Made by a program: the position numbers and the translations under genes
The notes under the pieces: model-generated
Seen by the model: the letters and a program-made list of their open reading frames with translations, nothing else
Told to the model about the DNA's origin: nothing
The model's database searches: none
From: Elusimicrobiota bacterium
Lineage (GTDB): Bacteria; Elusimicrobiota; UBA8919
Assembly: GCA_043802785.1 (NCBI GenBank)
Contig: JAZDKR010000024.1
Span: forward strand, 97-64,096
DNA: 64,000 nt
Reading direction: 5' to 3'
Part shown: positions 15,281 through 52,307 of the stretch, piece by piece
How the letters are laid out: every line of letters starts with the position of its first letter
How positions within the stretch are numbered: the stretch's first letter is position 1

Positions 15281-15352
15281 ATTCAGGATTAAGTCGTAAG
15301 GATTAAGAAGTCAGGATTAAGAATTAAGTAAAAACTTAATCCTGCTTTTTTT
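15281..15352. repeat. GGATTAAG tandem repeat with an inverted copy, followed by a T-run. This forms a terminator-like hairpin on the plus strand.
   Basis: Sequence caggattaagaattaagtaaaaacttaatcctgcttttttt. Confidence 0.6.
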
Positions 15353-15353
15353 A

Positions 15354-16052
15354 TTATATCAAATTGTAAAATTTTGTCAAGTGCCACCAAACAAATTTGT
15401 ATATTGATAATGCAATTGTCCAGGATTCAAAAAAATACCTCTTCAAGGCAATTTTATCCGGTGTTATAAATTTAAGCATAACAACCGCTATAATAATATT
15501 CAGAATTGCTATAATGATATACGAAAAAATTTTACCGGTTTTTCGGACATCCGACTGACCAATTAATAACGACTCTAAAGTTAAAAAAATGTGAAAAGAA
15601 TACGAAAAGCCGACGAAAAAAAACAGCCACTCAACATACCTTGTCCAAATGGACTCCTTCGGAGAAACAGGGAAAGCTAGAGATAGAATATAAAAAATAA
15701 AAATTATTAAAAATGTGTAGATGGGAAAAAAATATGGCGCAAGCGATATTAAAAAATTGCTTTTGGTCGTTACGACGCTTCCATTTTTTGAAGAAACATT
15801 AAATTCTTTAACTTTTCCTCGGAATAAAATTGCCCAAAATGCGTGAGTCAGTTCGTGCCCAAAAACATATAATCTGCCCGGAATAGATTTTACTAAAAAA
15901 ATTGCAAAAAAAATTACAAAACCAGAAAGAAACCACCCTTCTGAAGAGCTTAACGGGAAAAGAGAACTAAACAATTTCCCAAACGATTTCAACAATCCAA
16001 GAGCAAACGGGAACAAAACTACAGCCACTGATAATTTTACAAAACCAACCAT
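15354..16052 (-). CDS. Integral membrane protein with an HExxH motif, a putative membrane zinc metalloprotease.
   Basis: GHELTHAFWA sits within multiple TM helices. I cannot assign a family. Confidence 0.35.
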   Translation of the reverse strand: MVGFVKLSVAVVLFPFALGLLKSFGKLFSSLFPLSSSEGWFLSGFVIFFAIFLVKSIPGRLYVFGHELTHAFWAILFRGKVKEFNVSSKNGSVVTTKSNFLISLAPYFFPIYTFLIIFIFYILSLAFPVSPKESIWTRYVEWLFFFVGFSYSFHIFLTLESLLIGQSDVRKTGKIFSYIIIAILNIIIAVVMLKFITPDKIALKRYFFESWTIALSIYKFVWWHLTKFYNLI

Positions 16053-19452: not shown

Positions 19453-19625
19453 AAAAACCCCTCCTTTTTTCAGTAGTAAGGATTAAGTTATAAGTTATAA
19501 GAATTAAGAAGTCAGGATTAAGAATTAAGTAGTAAGAATTAAGTAAAAACTTAATCCTTAATCCTTAATCCTTATCATTTACCACTTACCACTTACCACT
19601 TAATCCTACCTTGCCTTATTCTACC
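19453..19625. repeat. Arrays of GGATTAAG / CCTTAAT and CCACTTAC tandem units forming inverted repeats.
   Basis: Sequence aggattaag(n) ... cttaatccttaatccttaatcc ... ccacttaccacttaccactt. Confidence 0.7.
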
Positions 19626-23167: not shown

Positions 23168-24523
23168 CTACACAATTCCATATGCAACCATTGCTTTGGC
23201 AACTTTTACAAATCCGGCAATGTTTGCACCCGCTAAATAATCACCTTTACAACCATAACTTTCGGCAGCTTCAAGGCAGGATTTATGTATACTTTTCATA
23301 ATCGCTAAAAGCCGACTGTCAACTTCTTCCCTGGTCCATGAAAGCCGCAAACTATTCTGGCTCATTTCTAAACCGGATGTCGCAACTCCTCCGGCATTAG
23401 TCGCTTTTGCAGGTCCGTACAAAGCACCGTGCGACTGAAAAACTTTTATGGCATCAAGATTTGAAGGCATATTGGCACCTTCTGCAACAGCAATGCAGCC
23501 ATTTTTAACAAGTGCTTCTGCATGGGCTTTGCCAATTTCATTTTGCGTGGCACAGGGCAGAGCAAGGTCAACTTTAAGCCCTCCCTCTTTTATCACATCC
23601 CATACACTCTTCCCTTCAAAGTACTTAACCTTAAATTTGTCCGCATATTCTTTTATTCTACCTCTACGGACATTTTTCAACTCCATAATGAAACTGAGTT
23701 TGTCCTTGTTGATACCTGCTTCATCTATAACGGTACCGTTTGAATCAGAAACGCTTATTACTTTCCCGCCCATCTGATTCACTTTTTCAATCGCATACTG
23801 TGCTACATTTCCGGAACCACTAACCGCGACAACCTTGTCTTTAAGGTCTTTCTTTTGTGTGGCAAGCATCTCGGCAACAAAATATACCAAGCCATAGCCC
23901 GTCGCTTCCGGTCGTATCAAACTTCCACCGTATTCAATACCTTTACCCGTCAAAATACCTTCGTGGGCATTAACAATTTTCTTGTAATAACCGTACATAT
24001 ATCCGATTTCTCTTCCGCCAACACCTATATCGCCGGCGGGGACATCTGTATCAGGCCCGATATGACGGTAAAGTTCTCGCATAAATGCTTGACAGAATCT
24101 CATAACCTCATTATCTGACTTGCCTTTTGGGTCAAAATCGGAACCACCTTTCCCGCCGCCCATAGGCAATGTTGTTAGAGAATTTTTGAATATCTGCTCA
24201 AAACCCAAAAATTTTACAATACTGAGATTGACGGATGGATGAAGACGCAGTCCACCTTTATATGGTCCGATTGCGTTATTAAATTGCACCCGAAAACCTC
24301 TGTTAACTTGCACTTCGCTTTTGTCATCAACCCAGGGAACTCTGAAAATTATTGCTCTATCTGGTTCGACAATTCTTTCGTAAATTTTTGCCTTAACAAA
24401 TTCCGGATGCTTTTCTACCGTTGGTTCCAGTGTATCCATAACCTCAGTTACTGCCTGAATGAACTCCGTCTGATTCCCATCTTTCTGCTGCACTTTTGCA
24501 ATTACATCACTGATAACTGACAT
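23168..24523 (-). CDS. gdhA: Glutamate dehydrogenase, NAD(P)-dependent.
   Basis: GGGKGGSDFDPKGKSD and the overall GDH family pattern. 451 aa. Confidence 0.9.
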   Translation of the reverse strand: MSVISDVIAKVQQKDGNQTEFIQAVTEVMDTLEPTVEKHPEFVKAKIYERIVEPDRAIIFRVPWVDDKSEVQVNRGFRVQFNNAIGPYKGGLRLHPSVNLSIVKFLGFEQIFKNSLTTLPMGGGKGGSDFDPKGKSDNEVMRFCQAFMRELYRHIGPDTDVPAGDIGVGGREIGYMYGYYKKIVNAHEGILTGKGIEYGGSLIRPEATGYGLVYFVAEMLATQKKDLKDKVVAVSGSGNVAQYAIEKVNQMGGKVISVSDSNGTVIDEAGINKDKLSFIMELKNVRRGRIKEYADKFKVKYFEGKSVWDVIKEGGLKVDLALPCATQNEIGKAHAEALVKNGCIAVAEGANMPSNLDAIKVFQSHGALYGPAKATNAGGVATSGLEMSQNSLRLSWTREEVDSRLLAIMKSIHKSCLEAAESYGCKGDYLAGANIAGFVKVAKAMVAYGIV

Positions 24524-24822: not shown

Positions 24823-25515
24823 TTATTTTTCAAAGTCAGCCATTATCAATATTGCTTCAGCAATCTCTTTCATTGATTTTCGTCTATCCATCGCCTGTTT
24901 TTGAATCATATGGTATGCAGAATCCTCCGACAAATTATTTTTTTTCATTAAAAATCCTTTTGCTCGTTCCACAAGTTTCCTGGTTTCAAGTTCTTCAGAA
25001 ATAACTTTTGTTTTCACCAAAAGTTCTGTGTTTTCAATAACAATTGCTGACTGATTTGCAACTGCTGTTAAAACGTTTTCTTCTTTTTTTGTAAATCTAT
25101 GCGGACTTGATGTATAAACATCTATTGCCCCAATCACTTTCCCTTTTACAACAAGTGGAACACACAATAAGGACACAAGTCCTTCTTTTTTGGCAATCTC
25201 TTTGTATTTGTAAAATTTACTTTTTGATATATTCAAAACTACAATTGGTTTTTTTTCCTTTACAACTTTTCCAGCAATTCCTTCACCTGTTTTCAAAGGC
25301 GGTTTTTTCAGATACTCCTCTGAAATTGATTGTGACGCTTTTATCACAAGTTCTTTTTTTTCATTAAGAAGCATCAGTGAACATATTTTTGAACCAAGTG
25401 CCTGGGCAGTAACTGTAACAATGAGTTTTAATATATCGTCACGGTAAAGTTCCGAAGTTATCGCTTGTGAAATTTTTGCAAGTGCTTTAATTATATTGTT
25501 AGAATCTTTTTTCAT
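24823..25515 (-). CDS. GAF-domain protein with a C-terminal ANTAR RNA-binding domain (antiterminator-type regulator).
   Basis: GAF fold in the N-terminal two-thirds. The C-terminal LVERAKGFLMKKNNLSEDSAYHMIQKQAMDRR matches the ANTAR signature. Confidence 0.7.
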   Translation of the reverse strand: MKKDSNNIIKALAKISQAITSELYRDDILKLIVTVTAQALGSKICSLMLLNEKKELVIKASQSISEEYLKKPPLKTGEGIAGKVVKEKKPIVVLNISKSKFYKYKEIAKKEGLVSLLCVPLVVKGKVIGAIDVYTSSPHRFTKKEENVLTAVANQSAIVIENTELLVKTKVISEELETRKLVERAKGFLMKKNNLSEDSAYHMIQKQAMDRRKSMKEIAEAILIMADFEK

Positions 25516-25781: not shown

Positions 25782-28091
25782 TTAATAGACAAAAAGCATT
25801 TCTCTGTATTTCGGAAGAATCCAGTATTCGTCCCCGGTATGTTCTTCAAGGGCGTCAACCGTTTCCCTTAAATTGTACATCAAAGGAATTATTTCCATGC
25901 AATAGAAATTTGCCTTTTCGTCTTCTCGTTCTATTTTTTCCTTTTTGTCAAGCACGGACTGAAGTTTCTCTGTCTTTTCGTAAAGTTCTACGACAAGTTT
26001 TGAATACATTGAGACAATTTCCGATTCTTTTTTCAGCACTTTGGCATCAATTCCATTTATGCAAGGTAGGACAGCCGAGTAGGTTCGCCTGTGGCGAAGG
26101 TCTTTAGACCCTGTCATCTCGGTTGAACGGTCTAAAGACCGTTCACTACCATTCATTGAAATTCCTAAACATGACCTTAAGTTATTTACCGACTCTGCCA
26201 AAACATTCTGATATTTGACTACTGCGGGAAACACAAGTGTTTTAGCCATCATCAAAACGGTCTCAACTTCTATATTTACAACTTTTATGTACTGCTCAAC
26301 CAATATCGTGTAAATTGATTCTATCTCAACTTCGCTCAGAACATTTAATCTTGTGAAGACATCTTTATTTTTTTTGGTTACAAGGTCTTTCAACGATTCG
26401 GGTGTGGTTTTTTTATTCGGCAATCCGCGTTTTTTTGCTTCTTTTTCCCAGGCAGTATCATAGTTGTTACCTTCAAATCTTATTGGCGCTGTTTCAGTTA
26501 TTAAAGGAATAATCGCTTTTAATACAACCCTGTTAATATCTTTCTCTTTTTTCAGATTATCCTCTATTTCTTTATAGAGGTCGTTCAGAACATCGGCGAC
26601 AATAACATTCAGCGTATAATTTGCCATCGCAATAGAATGTGATGAACCCACCGCTCTGAACTCAAACTTGTTGCCGGTAAACGCAAATGGAGAAGTCCTG
26701 TTTCTGTCGCTAGTGTCTCTATTTATCGTCGGTAATTTGCCGATACCCATATCTATAATTGCCTTATCACTATAATCCGCTTTTTTATTTTTTTCCAGAT
26801 TGTTTAGAATTTCTGTGAGTTGTTCTCCCAGAAATATGGAAATTATCGCAGGTGGTGCCTCGTTTGCACCTAATCTATGGTCATTACCGGCTGTCGCAAC
26901 AGTTGCCCGCAACAAATCAGAATACTTATAAACGGCTTTCATTGTAGCGAGCAGGAAAGTTAAAAACTGCAAGTTTGCATGCGGCGTTTTGCCTGGTTCA
27001 AGTAGATTCGTACCGTCGGAATCCGCCATGGACCAGTTATTGTGCTTTCCAGAACCGTTTATGCCCAAAAACGGTTTCTCGTGCAATAAGAGTGCGAGAT
27101 TGTGCCTGTTTGCAATCTTCTTTAATGTTTCCATTATTATCTGGTTATGGTCGGTGGCAACATTGCTGTCCTCAAACAACGGTGCGATTTCAAACTGTGC
27201 AGGAGCAACTTCGTTGTGCCTTGTTTTCACGGGAATTCCAAACTTAAAAAGTTCTAACTCCGAATCATGCATAAACGCAAGAATTCTTTCCCTGATGCTG
27301 CCAAAATAGTGATCCTCCATTTCCTGACCTTTGGGCGGTTTCGCACCGAATAATGTTCTGCCGGTAATGATTAAATCCGGTCTTCTGTTGTAATATGCTT
27401 TGTCAACCAAAAAATATTCTTGTTCGGAACCCACAGTCGCATAAACCCTGTTTATTTTTTTATTTCCGAAAAGGTGCAATATCTTTACGGCAACTTCACT
27501 TAATCTGTCCATTGAACGCAGAAGCGGCGTTTTTTTATCCAATGCCTCACCCGTATATGATAAAAATACACAGGGAATGCAAAGTGTTGTGCCGTTGACG
27601 GCTTCAACCAAAAATGCCGGCGAGGTGGGATCCCACGCAGTATAACCCCTCGCTTCAAAAGTACTTCTCAACCCACCGCTTGGGAAAGAAGAAGCATCTG
27701 GTTCGCCTTGTATAAGATTGCTTCCTGAAAATCTTTCTATGATTTTACCATCTTTGCTGAAACTCAGAAAACTGTCATGCTTTTCCGCCGTCAAACCCGT
27801 CATCGGATGAAACCAGTGAGTAAAATGTGTCGCACCTCTGCCAATTGCCCATTCTTTCATACCTTGTGCAACTTCTTCCGCTAATATCGGTTCAACTCTC
27901 CCGCCTTCCTTGATTATTTTTTTTAACGCTTCATATGTTTTGTAAGGCAGATGTTTTTTCATTGCCTCGTCGTTAAAAGAGTTCATCCCGTATATTTCCG
28001 AGATAGGTTTCCCTTTCATTTTCGTGCTAATCGTCTGGCATAAATTTCTCTGGTTTGTAATTTCTGAAATTATCTGTTCTCTGTATTGCAT
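25782..28091 (-). CDS. glnN: Glutamine synthetase type III. Carries an in-frame repeat insertion at about 26046-26160.
   Basis: 769 aa. The N-terminal HFTHWFHPMTGLTAEKHDSF and the overall length fit GSIII. The insert encodes MNGSERSLDRSTEMTGSKDLRHRR. Confidence 0.8.
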   Translation of the reverse strand: MQYREQIISEITNQRNLCQTISTKMKGKPISEIYGMNSFNDEAMKKHLPYKTYEALKKIIKEGGRVEPILAEEVAQGMKEWAIGRGATHFTHWFHPMTGLTAEKHDSFLSFSKDGKIIERFSGSNLIQGEPDASSFPSGGLRSTFEARGYTAWDPTSPAFLVEAVNGTTLCIPCVFLSYTGEALDKKTPLLRSMDRLSEVAVKILHLFGNKKINRVYATVGSEQEYFLVDKAYYNRRPDLIITGRTLFGAKPPKGQEMEDHYFGSIRERILAFMHDSELELFKFGIPVKTRHNEVAPAQFEIAPLFEDSNVATDHNQIIMETLKKIANRHNLALLLHEKPFLGINGSGKHNNWSMADSDGTNLLEPGKTPHANLQFLTFLLATMKAVYKYSDLLRATVATAGNDHRLGANEAPPAIISIFLGEQLTEILNNLEKNKKADYSDKAIIDMGIGKLPTINRDTSDRNRTSPFAFTGNKFEFRAVGSSHSIAMANYTLNVIVADVLNDLYKEIEDNLKKEKDINRVVLKAIIPLITETAPIRFEGNNYDTAWEKEAKKRGLPNKKTTPESLKDLVTKKNKDVFTRLNVLSEVEIESIYTILVEQYIKVVNIEVETVLMMAKTLVFPAVVKYQNVLAESVNNLRSCLGISMNGSERSLDRSTEMTGSKDLRHRRTYSAVLPCINGIDAKVLKKESEIVSMYSKLVVELYEKTEKLQSVLDKKEKIEREDEKANFYCMEIIPLMYNLRETVDALEEHTGDEYWILPKYREMLFVY

Positions 28092-28109
28092 TGTTTCGCC
28101 TCCTGTTCA

Positions 28110-28160
28110 GGATTAAGGATTAAGTAGTAAGGATTAAGTTTTTTCTTAATCCTGCCTTTG
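28110..28160. repeat. GGATTAAG hairpin (aggattaag tttttt cttaatcct).
   Basis: Lies between glnB and glnN. Confidence 0.65.
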
Positions 28161-28196
28161 TATTTTATTAAATAAATCTTGGAATGTCAAATTTTT

Positions 28197-28538
28197 TTAT
28201 CTGATTGCTTCACATCCTCTTTCGCCTGTTCTTATTCTGATACATTCTGGCAAATCCAGAATGAAAATTTTACCGTCACCGACATTACCTGTATTCGCAC
28301 CTTTTATTATGGCATCAACCGTCGGCTTAACAAAATTTTCGTTGACGGCAATTTCAAGACGAATCTTCCTCAAAAGGTTTCCCGTTTCTTTTACGCCTCT
28401 GTAAAATTCGGTAACACCTTTCTGTCTTCCGTGACCTAAAACCTCACTTACCGTGATAAGATTAACATCGGCAAGGTAAAGTTCCTTTTTTACCTCTTCC
28501 AATTTGTGTGGCTGAATTATCGCAATTATCAATTTCAT
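28197..28538 (-). CDS. glnB: Nitrogen regulatory protein P-II.
   Basis: 113 aa; the canonical P-II sequence and length (MKLIIAIIQPHKLEEVKKEL ...). Confidence 0.9.
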   Translation of the reverse strand: MKLIIAIIQPHKLEEVKKELYLADVNLITVSEVLGHGRQKGVTEFYRGVKETGNLLRKIRLEIAVNENFVKPTVDAIIKGANTGNVGDGKIFILDLPECIRIRTGERGCEAIR

Positions 28539-28727
28539 TTTTCCTCCTATAATAATGTCACCCCTACGGGGTTATTTGCTTGTGAGCGACTATTAACCTT
28601 TCCACCTTTTAATCGTGGAGCGAAGCAAGAAATTTGTAAGGAACCTCGGTTTGCGACTTATTCGTTCCAGGAGCAAACCGCAGAGCGAGTTCTAACGAGC
28701 GTTTCCGACAAATTTACTTGCGAGCGA

Positions 28728-29311
28728 CTATTCAATCAAAGTATATGCACCCTCTTGATGCTGGGTCAAATCAAGTCCAATTATCTCATCTATTTCGCTT
28801 ACCCTGACGCCGATGGTTAAATCAACCAATTTGTAAATGATAAATGTCATCGCAAAAGTATAGACAACGGTAACACAAACTGTAATTAACTGCATTATCA
28901 ATTGTTTCGGGTTTCCGAAAAAAAGACCGTTGTTGCCCGCTGGATTTATCAATTTTGAAGCAAAAAGACCCGTTGCCAAAGTTCCTAATATGCCGCTGAT
29001 ACCATGCACCCCAAAAGCATCAAGGGAATCGTCATAGCCCAATTTTGGTTTGATAAGACCGACCGCAACAAAACAGATAACACTAGCCGAAAAACCTATC
29101 AGTATAGCCGATATAACGGCGAAAAAGCAAGCGAGTATCCGAATAAAACCCATTGCAAACTCAAAACGCAAAGAACAATAAAGCACTGCATTAAAATGCC
29201 AAGAACATTTTTTCTTCTAACTATTCCTCCGTAAAAAAATGCAAGCCCTGTCGTCATCAACATCACAAACCCAGCCGATATCAAAACAAAAGCAGTATCT
29301 CCAGAATTCAT
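28728..29311 (-). pseudogene. amtB: Ammonium transporter relic. Only the N-terminal roughly 65 residues and the C-terminal roughly 140 residues remain, in different frames.
   Basis: The two ORFs 29099-29311 and 28728-29186 match the Amt N-terminus (GDTAFVLISAGFVMLMTTGLAFFYGGIVRRKNVL) and C-terminus (DAFGVHGISGILG ...). The span is 584 bp against about 1.2 kb expected. Confidence 0.75.
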
Positions 29312-29465
29312 ATTTCCCCCTAAACAAAAAAGTCCCTAATTCCACTTTTCCCACTTTGGAATTAAAGACCTCAATGTCTAACGAAAATTTTCTAACCGAC
29401 TCTGGCTACTATGAGGACTACATCGTCCTTTACTTTAATTATATCAAAAGCAATATAATTTTGCT

Positions 29466-29588
29466 AATGACTAACTTTTAGATGTTTTTCTCTCCAATCC
29501 TGATGAAGAACAATCGCCGCCATAATAACTGCAAAAAGTATTAACATCCCAAGACCAATATAAAGACCAATATCTTCCATATTCATTC
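29466..29588 (-). CDS. Small hydrophobic peptide of 40 aa (MNMEDIGLYIGLGMLILFAVIMAAIVLHQDWREKHLKVSH), translationally coupled to the upstream gene.
   Basis: An aaaggagaa ribosome-binding site and an ATGA stop/start overlap. Has a paralog at 30560-30652 with the conserved C-terminus KEKHLKVSH. Confidence 0.5.
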
Positions 29589-29786
29589 TCCTTTATCAAT
29601 AATGGTTCCAATAATTACAAATATTATCCAAAAACTCGCACCTAAAAATATCCTGATAATATTTAACTCTCCTGCTACAAAAGAGCCCAAAATAATTATC
29701 GCAAAAACAAAGTTGGCTGCGTTAAAAAATGCTTTTGCTAAATTTTCTCTTTGTTTTTTTGTAAAATTCATTCTGAGCATAATCAT
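29583..29786 (-). CDS. Small two-TM membrane protein of about 62-67 aa.
   Basis: Has a paralog at 30646-30858 (TKKQ(R/K)ENLAK(A/V)FFN ...). Preceded by a conserved promoter. Confidence 0.55.
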   Translation of the reverse strand: MIMLRMNFTKKQRENLAKAFFNAANFVFAIIILGSFVAGELNIIRIFLGASFWIIFVIIGTIIDKGE

Positions 29787-29815
29787 ACAAAATTATCAAA
29801 TTTTGTCAACCCCGT
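29787..29815 (-). promoter_or_regulatory. Sigma70-type promoter, TTGACA-N16/17-TATGAT. The -10 element overlaps the start codon, so the mRNA may be leaderless.
   Basis: Minus strand reads ttgacaaaatttgataattttgtatgattatgctcagaatg. Conserved in the copy at 30859-30887. Confidence 0.55.
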
Positions 29816-30077
29816 CAGAAAGAATTCCAAAATTTCTAACGTGGTCAAGTGCTTTTTTGGTTTTCCCGAATGAAAAATCTTTAATCCCACTTTGGAATTA
29901 AAGACCTCAATGTCTGACGAACATTTTCTAACCAACTATGGTTTGTAAACTATTTTTTAACTAATACAAACAAAATATATCTTGTTACATATTCTCACTG
30001 TTGTCATTGCTTCGTTGTCCCGACTTGTCGGGACTCCTCGCAATGACGCTTTGCATCAATTTACTCCCGAGCGACCT

Positions 30078-30420
30078 TCATATTTCTGTTGGTATAACCT
30101 CTTTTGAGCGAAACTCTTTTGGGACATAAATATATCCGGAATATGGTTTTTTTTCTTTAACAACCATTCCGGCAAGACCTTCGCCTATTTTAAGTGGTGG
30201 TTTTTTCAAATACTCATTTGAAATTGACTGGGAAGCCCTGATTACAAGTTCATTGTTTTCATTTAAAAGCATTAACGAACATATCTTGAAACCAAATACT
30301 TCAGCAGTAATTGTTACAATCAATTTAAGGATATCGTCAAGATAAAGTTCTGAAGTTATTGCCTGTGATATTTTAGTGAGTGCCTCTATTCACTTACACT
30401 TTTTTCTTTCATATTTTTTT
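30078..30420 (-). pseudogene. Truncated, frameshifted paralog of the GAF-ANTAR gene at 24823-25515. Only the N-terminal third remains.
   Basis: About 70 percent identity to residues 30-120 of the full gene, plus an upstream stretch in another frame. No ANTAR domain. Confidence 0.7.
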
Positions 30421-30559
30421 CCTCCACAAAATAAAAAATCCTCATACCGTCTTTGGCGGATGGCAACATATCATCCGCCTATGGCATGAGGACTACATCG
30501 TCCTTTACTTTAATTATATCAAAAGCAATATAATTTTGCTAATGACTAACTTTTAGATG

Positions 30560-30652
30560 TTTTTCTTTTCTATTCTGGTTAATAACAATTCCACCGATAA
30601 CCAAAGTAAAAGCTAACGCCACAAAAAATAACAAAGTAATCTCATTCATATC
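30560..30652 (-). CDS. Small hydrophobic peptide of 36 aa, the second copy.
   Basis: MNEITLLFFVALAFTLVIGGIVINQNRKEKHLKVSH. Same coupling arrangement as the first copy. Confidence 0.5.
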
Positions 30653-30858
30653 CCGTCTCCTGTATCAAGTATCACACCAATAATTAAAAACGCAAGAAAC
30701 AATATTACACCAACAATAAATGTAAATAGCGAAAATTTATCTGGCGTGGCGATTTTTCCTATAATAAGGGAAGCAAAAACAATTTGACTTAAATTAAAGA
30801 AAACTTTTGCTAAATTTTCTTTTTGCTTTTTTGTTAATTTCATTTCTGACATAATCAT
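30646..30858 (-). CDS. Small two-TM membrane protein, the second copy.
   Basis: Paralog of 29583-29786. The promoter TTGACA-N17-TATGAT is conserved at 30859-30887. Confidence 0.55.
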   Translation of the reverse strand: MIMSEMKLTKKQKENLAKVFFNLSQIVFASLIIGKIATPDKFSLFTFIVGVILFLAFLIIGVILDTGDGI

Positions 30859-31081
30859 ACAAAATTAAAAAAATTTGTCAAGTACTTTTTTTGAGAGTTA
30901 TTCAGGTTTGTGGCAAAAATATGAAGTTATTAAATTGTCAAGCCAGAAATTTATTGTATCATTTCCGTATCATCATTGTGAGATTGGTATTGTCAAAAAT
31001 AAAATGAAAAAAAAGACTACCACGAAAACACGTCTGACTGCCATGCCTGTCGTCAGCAGGCGTGGCTATGCTTCTATATTT

Positions 31082-34609: not shown

Positions 34610-34735
34610 ACTTCTTAAATCAGAATTAAGACATCAGTAATAAGGATTAAGCCGCTCACCCCGACAAGTCGGGGTTCGCTTTAAGTATTAAGTTTTTTCT
34701 TAATCCTTACAACTTAATCCTTAATCCTGCTTCTG
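34610..34735. repeat. GGATTAAG hairpin element with an embedded ccccgacaagtcgggg hairpin.
   Basis: Read directly from the sequence. Confidence 0.6.
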
Positions 34736-36625: not shown

Positions 36626-38172
36626 ATCACCTGTCTCCCTCTCGCAATTGCCAGTTTATTGTCAGGAACATTCTCAGTAATGGTTGAGCCGGCAGCAATC
36701 AAAACCCCTTTTCCTATTTTAATAGGCGCAATGAAATTAGTATTGCTTCCGACGAATGTGGAATCGCCAATTTCCGTTTTATGTTTATTTTTACCGTCGT
36801 AATTACAGGTAATCGTGCCGGCACCTATATTTATATTTTTTCCGAGTGTAGAATCACCGATATATGAAAGATGTGAGACCTTTGTATTTTCACCAATAAT
36901 TGATTTTTTAATCTCCGAGAAATTACCGATGAGAGCGTGCCTTGCTATTTTTGTTTCCTTTCTTATATGAGAAAACGGACCTACTCGGACATCGTCGGCA
37001 ATTTCGGCTCCGCAAACAAAAGATGCCTTTATTTCAACATTTTTTCCGACGATGCAATCCTCAATATAACTAAAAGGTCCAATCGTGCTGCCCGTTTTTA
37101 TTTTCGTTTTGCCTTTGATAATTGTTGAAGGTAAAATAGTGACATCTTTTTCAATCTCAACCGTTTCCTCTATGTGAACTGTCCCGGGATTGACAATCGT
37201 AACGCCGGCGAGCATTAGATTTTTAAGAACCTTTTCTCTGATGTAATTCTCCGCTTGGGCAAGTTCGCATCTGTTATTTATTCCCATAATTTCCTTGAAA
37301 TCCTTAATTTTATAGGCGATAACTTTTTTGCGGGAACCGCTTCGACTTAAAATTGACACAACATCCGTCAGATAATACTCGCCTTTTGAATTATCGTTTT
37401 TTATCTCGCGCAGTGCAGAAAAAAGTTCTTTCGACGAAAAGACATAAATACCTGAGTTGATTTCCTTTATTTTTTTGATTTCATATGAGGCATCTTTTGC
37501 CTCAACAATTGACTTAACCGTTCCATCGATATTTCGGACAATTCTTCCGTAATGCGAAGGATTTTCTATCTCGCAAGTAAGCACTGTCGCAACAGCTTTT
37601 TCTTTTTTGTGAACTGATAGCAATTTGTCAACAGTTTCTTTCGTAAGAAGCGGAACATCACCGGAAAGTATAACCAAATCGCCTGTTCCCTCACAACGGG
37701 ACTCCGCACATTTAACAGCATCACCGGAACCAAGTTGTTTTTCCTGTTCAACAAAAACCACCTGACTAAGAGGTTGTCCGACAACCCCTGTTTTTTGGTT
37801 TTGACCGTCATTCCGTGCTTGACACGGAATCCATTCTCCGACGGTAACACAATTTTCTGAGAGCCTGCCCCGCGCTTTGACACGGGGGACCTTTTGACCA
37901 TTGTCGGACAACCTCCCAAGAGCCGTCATGCTTGCCATTCTATCGCTTATCGCTTTTTTGACAAGTTCTGCTTTGTGCCCTACAACGACAATTTTTTTAT
38001 CAAAACCGTTGTCTATAATTTCAATGACCCTTTCAATAATTGTTTTGCCCAAAATTTTATGAAGAACTTTCGGCGTTTCCGACTTAAACCTTGTTCCTTC
38101 ACCTGCAGCAAGAATAATACAAACAATACTTCCCATAGCAATTGAAATACAATGGAACCACGATGGAGACAC
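36610..38172 (-). CDS. glmU: Bifunctional GlmU (UDP-GlcNAc pyrophosphorylase / GlcN-1-P acetyltransferase). Carries an in-frame insertion of about 60 aa, at about 37764-37947.
   Basis: N-terminal LAAGEGTRFKSETPKVLH, a C-terminal left-handed beta-helix (hexapeptide) domain, and the glmU-prs-rplY-pth synteny. The insert encodes WIPCQARNDG, which is also present in a spurious ORF in the 18000-18365 repeat block. Confidence 0.85.
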   Translation of the reverse strand: MSPSWFHCISIAMGSIVCIILAAGEGTRFKSETPKVLHKILGKTIIERVIEIIDNGFDKKIVVVGHKAELVKKAISDRMASMTALGRLSDNGQKVPRVKARGRLSENCVTVGEWIPCQARNDGQNQKTGVVGQPLSQVVFVEQEKQLGSGDAVKCAESRCEGTGDLVILSGDVPLLTKETVDKLLSVHKKEKAVATVLTCEIENPSHYGRIVRNIDGTVKSIVEAKDASYEIKKIKEINSGIYVFSSKELFSALREIKNDNSKGEYYLTDVVSILSRSGSRKKVIAYKIKDFKEIMGINNRCELAQAENYIREKVLKNLMLAGVTIVNPGTVHIEETVEIEKDVTILPSTIIKGKTKIKTGSTIGPFSYIEDCIVGKNVEIKASFVCGAEIADDVRVGPFSHIRKETKIARHALIGNFSEIKKSIIGENTKVSHLSYIGDSTLGKNINIGAGTITCNYDGKNKHKTEIGDSTFVGSNTNFIAPIKIGKGVLIAAGSTITENVPDNKLAIARGRQVIKKRD

Positions 38173-38190
38173 AATTGAAACGCAATTGTA

Positions 38191-38225
38191 TTTCTACTGT
38201 ATTTCTACTGTATTTCTACAAATTT
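38191..38225. repeat. Tandem repeat (tgtatttctac)3.
   Basis: Direct reading. Confidence 0.8.
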
Positions 38226-38236
38226 CTGACGGTTCT

Positions 38237-38309
38237 CTGGGGAGGATGGATTCGAACCATCGTAATGACGGCTCCAAAGGCCGTTGCCTTACCGCTTGGC
38301 TACTCCCCA
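38237..38309 (-). tRNA. tRNA-Gln (anticodon UUG).
   Basis: Cloverleaf folded by hand. Sequence is TGGGGAGTAGCCAAGCGGTAAGGCAACGGCCTTTGGAGCCGTC...GGTTCGAATCC...CTCCCCA. It resembles the E. coli tRNA-Gln 5' half. Confidence 0.7.
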
Positions 38310-38360
38310 ATTACGCTCCCTCGCCAAAGACGAGTCCGCCTCTGGCAGAAAAGGCCGTTG

Positions 38361-38391
38361 CCTTATCCGCATAAGTGTACTACTCCACAAT
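38361..38391 (-). pseudogene. Degenerate partial copy of the 5' half of tRNA-Gln.
   Basis: aaaggccgttgccttatccgc ... ctactccacaatta compared with the tRNA sequence aaaggccgttgccttaccgcttggctactccccaatta. Confidence 0.5.
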
Positions 38392-38659
38392 TACACCCAT
38401 GTTTCCAATTCCCGTAAAAATCGTTATCTCAACTTATATTCTTCTACCTTTTTCAGACGGTAAAAATCAATTTTCGGCATTTAGTATTTAATAGTATTTG
38501 CTGGTATTTAAAAGTATCTTTTTATCAATTTGTAAGGGCAATCGCAGAATCTATAAAAACAGCCACTTTTTAGAGAACAATTAATACCACTTTATCAACC
38601 TTCTTTATTTTACCCAATTAATTCTCTTTTGTCAATGTTTTTTCAGATTATGCATTATC

Positions 38660-44149: not shown

Positions 44150-44290
44150 TTTTGTTTGTCATTGCGAGGTGAAACCACCCGCCCCAAAGGGGCGAGGCCT
44201 CGCCATATGCGGGTGGCAATCCCAAAAAATAGATTGCTTCGTCCTCCGACTTCGTCGGAGTCCTCGCAATGACAACCAAATTAAAATTTG
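44150..44290. repeat. CATTGCGAGG-family palindromic element pair.
   Basis: gtcattgcgaggtgaaaccacccgcc ... cctcgcaatgacaac. Confidence 0.7.
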
Positions 44291-44390: not shown

Positions 44391-45884
<1,494 letters not shown>

Positions 45885-51534: not shown

Positions 51535-52307
51535 ATAATATTTTTCGAAATCTTGGATTTGCCAATCGATCTATCGGCAAAAAATATAGGGTACTCAAAA
51601 ATTTTATATCCGAGTTTGTGTGCCCTGTATTTCATTTCTATCAAAAATCCATAACCCTCTGACTTCACTTCGTCAAGATTTATATTTTCCAGCACTTTAC
51701 GACGGAAACCCATAAAACCAGATGTGCAGTCATTAACAGGCATACATAAAACTGTTTTCGCATACAAATTCCCCAGACGGGATATTATTTTTCTATGGAC
51801 GGGCATTGAATTACAACCGCCTTTTACATAACGAGAACCGACTACTAAATCATAACTTTTGAGTTTTTTTAGGAACCCCAAAAAACATTCCGGGTTATGG
51901 GAAAAATCTGCATCCATAGTAAAAATAAAATCAAAATCTCTTACCAAAGCCCACTTAAATCCTTGAATGTATGCTGTCCCAAGTCCAAGTTTTTTTTCAC
52001 GATGAATAATTTCTAATTGAGATTGCGAAGATTGTTCCAATTCTGTCATATGAGATTGCTTCGTCGTCCCGATCTTATCGGGACTCCTCGCAATGACACT
52101 TTGTGCCGCTTTTAACCCTTCCGATATCTCTCCCGTTCCGTCGGGCGAATTATCGTCAATGATTAAGAGATTGAGATCGCCCGCCACACGGATCGGCGAG
52201 TCCGCCTTTGGCGGAAGATTGAGAACTTGGTCAACAATCTTTTCTATATTTTCTCTCTCGTTATATGTCGGGATTATAATCAAAACTTTACTTTTTTTTA
52301 GTGACAT
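51477..52307 (-). CDS. GT2 glycosyltransferase, polyprenol-phosphate mannosyltransferase-like. Carries two in-frame repeat insertions at about 52175-52214 and 52040-52105.
   Basis: IIIPTYNEREN ... DDNSPDGT. The inserts encode PPKADSPIRVAGD and ...ARSPDKIGTTKQSHMTEL... Confidence 0.7.
   Translation of the reverse strand: MSLKKSKVLIIIPTYNERENIEKIVDQVLNLPPKADSPIRVAGDLNLLIIDDNSPDGTGEISEGLKAAQSVIARSPDKIGTTKQSHMTELEQSSQSQLEIIHREKKLGLGTAYIQGFKWALVRDFDFIFTMDADFSHNPECFLGFLKKLKSYDLVVGSRYVKGGCNSMPVHRKIISRLGNLYAKTVLCMPVNDCTSGFMGFRRKVLENINLDEVKSEGYGFLIEMKYRAHKLGYKIFEYPIFFADRSIGKSKISKNIIWEAIFLVWKLKFMEIQPQ

Follow-up and report, generated by a model that had tools for sequence, protein, structure and literature searches.

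A probable amtB pseudogene with an out-of-frame internal deletion in front of an intact P-II gene in an uncultured Elusimicrobiota contig

An ammonium transporter gene that is reduced to 584 nt, yet stands in front of a complete P-II gene, raises the question of whether the locus is a genuine pseudogene, a product of assembly, or a gene that still makes a protein of some other kind. The locus in question occupies positions 28728-29311 (minus strand) of the window, by which we mean the whole 64-kb stretch of DNA that was analysed. We consider it probable that this amtB relic is a genuine and recent pseudogene that arose by a microhomology-mediated internal deletion, a reading based on one MAG contig.

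Two remnants of an ammonium transporter in different reading frames

The peptides quoted in the preliminary description of this locus are encoded where it had placed them, and the minus strand between 29311 and 28728 contains two overlapping ORFs in different frames. The first ORF (29311..29099, 70 aa) reads MNSGDTAFVLISAGF...QWVLFGYSLAFSP followed by LYRLY and a stop codon, and the second (29186..28728, 152 aa) ends with ...GYDDSLDAFGVHG...LTQHQEGAYTLIE. The Pfam model PF00909 (Ammonium_transp) matches the 70-aa ORF over model positions 1-59 of 399 (E 1.6e-14) and the 152-aa ORF over positions 271-399 of 399 (E 3.1e-37). Similarly, the NCBIfam model TIGR00836 matches the N-terminal piece over positions 1-60 of 406 (65.3 bits, E 4.8e-18) and the C-terminal piece over positions 276-406 of 406 (134.2 bits, E 5.5e-39). 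A full-length Amt domain of 11 helices, encoded within one ORF and scoring above the TIGR00836 family cut-off of 343.3 bits, is not found in the relic. In the NCBI annotation the two pieces are separate 'hypothetical protein' entries (V1833_02465 and V1833_02460), perhaps because the TIGR00836 scores of the two together (65 + 134 bits) fall well short of the 343-bit cut-off. On the reading preferred here both belong to a single defunct amtB, one half each, and their annotation should be changed to pseudogene.

When two 408-aa Amt proteins from Omnitrophota were searched against the window with tblastn, residues 1-65 were placed at 29311..29117 and residues 274/275-408 at 29132..28731, in different frames, with the N-terminal remnant 74-78% identical to residues 1-65 of the two homologs L003/L004. 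Adding the remnants to an alignment of 152 intact homologs gave coverage of residues 1-65 and 277-408. The N-terminal remnant (29117..29311, minus strand, codons 1-65) is identified by Pfam, TIGR00836, tblastn and hydropathy, and is followed at 29099..29116 by the out-of-frame tail LYRLY and a TGA stop, as seen in the translation and the ORF list. The C-terminal remnant (28728..29126, minus strand), identified by Pfam, TIGR00836 and alignment to E. coli AmtB, corresponds to reference residues 277-408 plus the stop codon. Hydropathy analysis of the N-terminal remnant gives two hydrophobic segments, taken as TM1 and TM2, and the C-terminal remnant comprises the last three helices, as expected from its hydropathy profile, together with the FGVHG histidine motif and the cytoplasmic tail. 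This leaves 197 of about 408 Amt residues, split between two reading frames, and about 211 codons (roughly 643 nt by our estimate) are missing. In the intact relatives, which were drawn from GTDB genomes and JGI metagenomes and are about 408 aa long and mostly from Omnitrophota and other uncultured lineages, the segments that match the two remnants lie 639 nt apart within a single frame. Both ends of the window gene are homologous to intact orthologs, its middle is absent and its frame is disrupted.

These results bear on several claims of the preliminary description. That amtB has been cut to 584 bp before an intact glnB is borne out by Pfam, TIGR00836 and tblastn alike. Of the proposed out-of-frame joining of residues 1-65 to about 265-406, the first 65 residues and the change of frame stand, and the start of the second part moves to nearer 277 in the numbering of the nearest relatives, 265 being the numbering of A. 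fulgidus Amt-1. The loss in the middle of the gene is large, as claimed, and its size is nearer 211 than 200 codons. In the 64-kb window tblastn at E up to 10 found neither Amt residues 66-274 nor the second amt copy for which the preliminary description had suggested a search.

The alignment to AmtB that it had proposed for defining the breakpoints leaves only residues 7-68 and 276-405 of the E. coli protein represented, and the deleted stretch corresponds to residues 69-275. Because nothing else of AmtB is represented, the relic is predicted to be unable to form a channel or to conduct ammonium. In the published AmtB structures the lost stretch carries the periplasmic binding site, Phe gate and first pore histidine, with W148, F107, F215, D160, S219 and H168 all lying within it; the equivalent of H318 (in FGVHG) is the one such residue kept. 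Inspection of the pore and recruitment residues W148, F107, F215, D160, S219 and H168/H318 in the relic accordingly finds the H318 equivalent and none of the others.

The junction and the probable origin of the deletion

The two remnants meet at the sequence TTTTTCGCCG (29126..29117, minus strand), on which the homology of both reading frames overlaps, as judged from the sequence itself, from column conservation at reference positions 63-65 and 276-280, and from the overlapping tblastn matches. On the minus strand the N frame reads ...GGA TAC TCG CTT GCT TTT TCG CCG TTA TAT CGG CTA TAC TGA, and the C frame, which is -1 relative to it, reads ...GCT TGC TTT TTC GCC GTT ATA TCG GCT ATA CTG ATA GGT.... 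Homology in the N frame reaches F63, which is invariant, and P65, which is found in 131/152 homologs. Homology in the C frame begins at F277, where F-F-A-V-I-S-A-I-L-I-G is read against the consensus F-V-x-x-x-x-A-I-I-I-G, with the substitution V278F in a column that is V in 149/152 homologs. The retained hexamer TCGCCG (29122..29117, minus strand) encodes S64-P65 when read in the N frame and contributes to codons 278-280 when read in the C frame. The frame is set by a run of five T at 29126..29122, and one extra T would give an in-frame ORF of 195 codons. Neither a mobile element nor an inverted repeat was detected at the junction in a repeat search.

The ancestor would have been an amt gene of about 408 codons in the usual amt-glnB(-GSIII) order, from which about 643 nt (codons 66-277) would have been lost. 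The likeliest cause would be illegitimate recombination or replication slippage between two short direct repeat copies of TCGCCG, one of which was kept; the reconstructed breakpoints, ...GCT TTT TCG CCG... on the N side and ...TTY GTC GCC GTT... on the C side, would both contain this hexamer. A deletion between these 6-nt microhomology copies is thus the most likely origin of the junction, with the ancestral DNA reconstructed from protein homology rather than observed, since the nearest Amt relatives are only about 70% identical (no closer relative over the C-terminal part was found in GTDB species genomes and JGI metagenomes). The joining of ...TTT/TCGCCG to G/TCGCCG/TT would explain V278F. 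As 643 is not divisible by three, translation from the original start would enter the -1 frame and stop after five foreign codons. The expected product from this start would be a 70-aa peptide with two membrane helices, and the last 132 codons would be left without start signals of their own.

Apart from the junction, both remnants are free of stops and frameshifts. In columns kept in at least 95% of the 152 homologs, deviations outside the junction are seen at two of 43 positions (P21T and G320S), and 11% of the intact homologs are equally bad. The Amt remnants are 0.019 less identical than intact pairs at a given glnB divergence, which corresponds to 0.7 sd, and 19.5% of intact sequences lie lower. 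Nothing significant that would indicate long-term decay was found in either the conserved-column test or the Amt-versus-glnB divergence test. Since the remnants are undamaged and their divergence is no more than expected, the deletion looks recent on the scale that such comparisons can measure; alternatively, it may be not fixed, or not real.

The nitrogen gene cluster and the zone upstream of the relic

In 152 of 162 related loci amt is followed by glnB, and the order amt-glnB-GSIII is found in L006, L009, L013 and L085. In the window, a full-length P-II gene of the glnB/glnK type (28197..28538, minus strand, 113 aa; Pfam P-II 1-102 of 102, E 3.4e-26; NCBIfam 1-112 of 112) lies directly downstream of the relic on the same strand, and its product is 75-86% identical to those of the P-II genes beside intact amt in relatives. 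The gene for glutamine synthetase type III (25782..28091, minus strand, 769 aa; Pfam GSIII_N, Gln-synt_C and Gln-synt_C-ter) is an intact ORF and aligns over residues 28-768 with the GSIII downstream of amt-glnB in the four loci named above. The cluster also includes a GAF-ANTAR regulator (24823..25515, minus strand, 230 aa; Pfam GAF_2 and ANTAR), genes for which are found upstream of amt in several other related loci, and gdhA (24523..23168, minus strand). The preliminary description had called P-II, GSIII, gdhA and the GAF-ANTAR regulator intact, and all are indeed full-length ORFs with complete domain matches, in the last case for one GAF-ANTAR copy. The relic occupies the place expected of amt in a conserved amt-glnB-GSIII cluster.

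The spacer between amt and glnB (28539..28727, minus strand) is 189 nt long against a median of 21 nt in 115 relatives, which places it in the top 4%. A 21-nt direct repeat is found at its ends (two matches vs 0 expected), with one copy at 28574-28594, 35 nt before the glnB start, and the other at 28712-28732, overlapping the amt stop codon. The spacer looks like the result of a 138-nt insertion or duplication. It has no Rfam match, and its folding is no better than that of shuffled sequence (z -0.35).

Upstream of the relic, positions 29187-31081 form the largest non-coding gap in the window, the rest of which is about 88% coding. This zone contains a fragment of a GAF-ANTAR paralog that the preliminary description had overlooked, 0.8 kb upstream of the amt relic. 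The fragment (30144..30389 and on to a stop at 30078, minus strand; 82 codons, residues 9-90, found by tblastn) is identical to the intact copy at 25515..24823 in 81.7% of amino acids (tblastn E 1e-38) and 77.5% of nucleotides. It has lost its start codon, a stop lies just upstream, and the sequence past residue 90-110 or so is gone, and with it the remainder of the GAF domain and all of the ANTAR domain. The dN/dS ratio between the fragment and the intact copy is about 0.08, which suggests that the fragment was a working paralog for most of its history and lost its function only recently. A single slip in assembly explains the two separate truncations within 1.3 kb less well than real decay does, and together the relic and the truncated paralog would represent recent local decay of a nitrogen-uptake module.

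A module of about 400 nt occurs twice in the same zone, at 29411-29809 and 30486-30881, in copies that have diverged to 73% nt identity. It encodes a two-helix protein of 67/70 aa and a single-helix peptide of 40/36 aa; the two-helix protein of one copy has a weak match to DUF6722 (E 0.007). The GAF-ANTAR fragment, which sits between the two copies, has one of them in front of it, and the other stands in front of the amt relic. After each copy come a promoter-like TTAGCA-18-TATAAT and a small hairpin. The instance of this promoter-like element that lies before the amt relic (29438..29467, minus strand; duplicate at 30513-30542) was recognised by consensus scan only. A 16-bp hairpin with a U run (29329..29372, minus strand; RNA fold z -4.9) ends some 10 nt short of the ribosome-binding site and ATG of amt, and lies partly inside a 57-nt direct repeat (93% identity; 29349-29405 / 29885-29941) that flanks the 29411-29809 module. 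This hairpin is a putative terminator or attenuator, the latter of which may suit an ANTAR antiterminator. By eye, the amt leader gave no convincing match to an ANTAR dual-hairpin target, and the Rfam search covering the amt leader and the amt-glnB spacer returned only a tRNA at 38237-38309 and matches at chance level.

Some further features of the window were recorded. It takes up nearly all of a 64,096-nt MAG contig. Its G+C content is 38%, and all substantial ORFs across the 64 kb are on the minus strand. Outside the minus-strand genes, the plus strand has only two ORFs of at least 90 aa: one of 99 aa in the relic zone, which overlaps a small ORF on the minus strand, and one of 91 aa at 38142-38417, where the tRNA gene lies. 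Short intergenic repeats of about 40-65 nt fall into two families (76-97% identical), one at 30000-30053, 44233-44273, 44542-44590 and 52055-52103, and the other, which is palindromic and terminator-like, at 28107-28173, 15281-15364, 19512-19574 and 34682-34729. One member of each family lies in the nitrogen gene cluster.

Alternative explanations and comparison with known systems

Other amt genes with internal deletions were found among the matches listed, as in-frame Amt ORFs of 273 aa (P0002), 237 aa (P0003 and P0005) and 190 aa (P0004), and in P0006 and P0008. Like the window relic, these short forms have lost a large internal part of an amt gene that stands before a P-II gene. Unlike it, they have kept their reading frame; they are 45-67% identical to the window gene and differ in their breakpoints, indicating separate events. 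P0002 (L001 6001-6822; GCA_964555545.1, contig CAZKSS010000014.1), the closest to the relic among the short proteins listed, with 67% identity over the C-terminal part, carries an in-frame deletion of about 135 codons and adjoins an intact P-II gene, glnA and gltB. At a shared F-G-W motif its sequence passes from ...FWGG to FGWFGFNAG, which again suggests microhomology. P0004 (L002 43-983; ENA ERZ23880214, a 1.4-kb contig covered 4x) retains nearly the same portions of the gene as the relic, and the P-II gene after it is split into ORFs of 60 and 48 aa; this locus represents either an amt-glnB pair in decay or an error due to low coverage.

The idea that the short forms constitute a family was rejected, given the differing breakpoints and the fact that none of the matches listed exceeds 331 aa though intact relatives of about 408 aa exist. 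This absence of proteins above 331 aa among the matches listed indicates that the search itself favoured short forms. Retrieval by DNA pattern gave 160 loci, none of which had a large internal amt deletion, and a few of which had frameshifts or stops. The relatives L090, L014, L015, L023, L061 and L077 have a full-length amt with its N- and C-terminal parts in different frames or with a stop, and sequencing errors are likely in such frame-broken relatives, some of which come from Microflora Danica 'MFD' bins, probably long-read assemblies. L133 and L077 were also considered as deletion variants and rejected, as they contain tandem amt genes.

The deletion could instead be an assembly or scaffolding artefact, a chimeric library molecule, or a minority allele in a population most of whose cells keep an intact amtB, and we regard this as unlikely, if well above negligible. 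The contig comes from a MAG seen once. Clustered at 90% identity, glnB, GSIII and the two fragments are all singletons; a 24-mer adjoining the junction had 0 exact matches in JGI metagenomes, and exact look-ups of P0001 and glnB returned no gene record. An artefact or a very young minority allele would likewise leave the remnants without further decay, and the upstream zone, with its duplicated 400-nt modules and short repeats of a kind that can trouble assemblers, is not trivial to assemble. However, the sequence shared at the junction amounts to at most 6-10 nt, with no longer repeat at or near it, and 6-10 nt is far below the k-mer sizes of common short-read assemblers. The collapse of the assembly at a repeat, which the preliminary description had named as the outcome that would overturn its reading, finds no repeat long enough at the junction in our repeat search. 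A collapse of tandem amt paralogs is excluded because the join links non-homologous positions (residue 65 to residue 277). The second, unrelated truncation in the adjacent GAF-ANTAR fragment likewise argues against an artefact and for a deletion that would be present in the cells themselves.

Two further readings carry far less weight than a recent pseudogene. In one of them the locus would still make a mini-Amt of about 195 aa and five helices (TM1-2 and TM9-11 with the cytoplasmic tail), either through a sixth T in the run at 29122-29126 or through -1 slippage on C-UUU-UUC. One added T would indeed read ...GYSLAFFAVISAILIG... in frame, and as the join, mapped onto E. coli AmtB, falls between helix two and the third-from-last helix, the established N-out/C-in topology of AmtB would be preserved. 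In-frame internally deleted Amt ORFs also exist elsewhere, namely P0004, with nearly the same architecture, and P0002. Nevertheless, the sequence as given is out of frame, and U-UUU-UCG is not a canonical X-XXY-YYZ slippery heptamer. The other short forms differ in breakpoints and are no closer to the window gene than intact homologs are, which argues for independent accidents, and P0004 comes from a 1.4-kb contig at 4x coverage beside a broken P-II gene. GlnK docks on the cytoplasmic face of the intact AmtB trimer, a surface that five helices are unlikely to recreate. We therefore find such a product very improbable, and we would be equally surprised if a mini-Amt without ammonium transport still tethered or titrated the adjacent P-II protein at the membrane; if this were true, the short forms P0004 and P0002 could hint that mini-Amt products are tolerated or useful. 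In the other reading amt has been split or rearranged and its middle 211 codons survive elsewhere in the genome. We give this almost no credence: the part of the genome examined is 64 kb, but residues 66-274 are unmatched there at E up to 10, the remnants abut with overlapping homology, and the junction carries neither a mobile element nor an inverted repeat.

If the relic is the recent pseudogene that we consider probable, its consequences for the organism are narrower than previously proposed. The preliminary description took the organism to have lost this ammonium importer; a loss of ammonium import by the organism as a whole is unsupported, as 27 of the 75 relative loci that span 8 kb or more have another amt no more than a few kb away, which makes an amt paralog elsewhere in the genome quite possible. 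When ammonium is plentiful, unprotonated NH3 passes through membranes with no need of a channel, and GSIII and gdhA are still present to assimilate it. A metabolic reconstruction of this MAG should treat the glnB/GSIII-linked amt as non-functional, and ammonium uptake at low concentration would need another amt copy, if present. The suggestion of a host-associated niche also lacks support, as the window outside the relic zone shows no general erosion at its coding density of about 88%, and no other large non-coding stretch is present in it. The relic would be an ordinary amt pseudogene, and amt pseudogenes are already known, including in this phylum.

In comparison with the AmtB-GlnK system of E. 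coli and other prokaryotes, the window remnants align to E. coli AmtB residues 7-68 and 276-405, and a P-II gene comes next, as it does in 152 of 162 related loci. In A. fulgidus Amt-1 the corresponding residues are 1-63 and 265-392. With respect to the Amt/MEP/Rh family (PF00909/TIGR00836), the relic is a significant match, but one that is distributed over two frames and scores far under the cut-off. It also differs in its amt-glnB spacer, at 189 nt against a median of 21 nt in relatives.

A known parallel is Candidatus Endomicrobium trichonymphae, a member of the Elusimicrobia that lives as an endosymbiont of termite-gut protists. According to PMC5322295, which cites Hongoh et al. 2008, its ammonium transporter gene has been pseudogenised, and the same paper reads this loss as a sign that amino acids serve as its nitrogen source. 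The Endomicrobium case concerns a complete and visibly eroding endosymbiont genome, whereas the window is one densely coding contig of an uncultured MAG. What the two cases share is the phylum and the gene affected.
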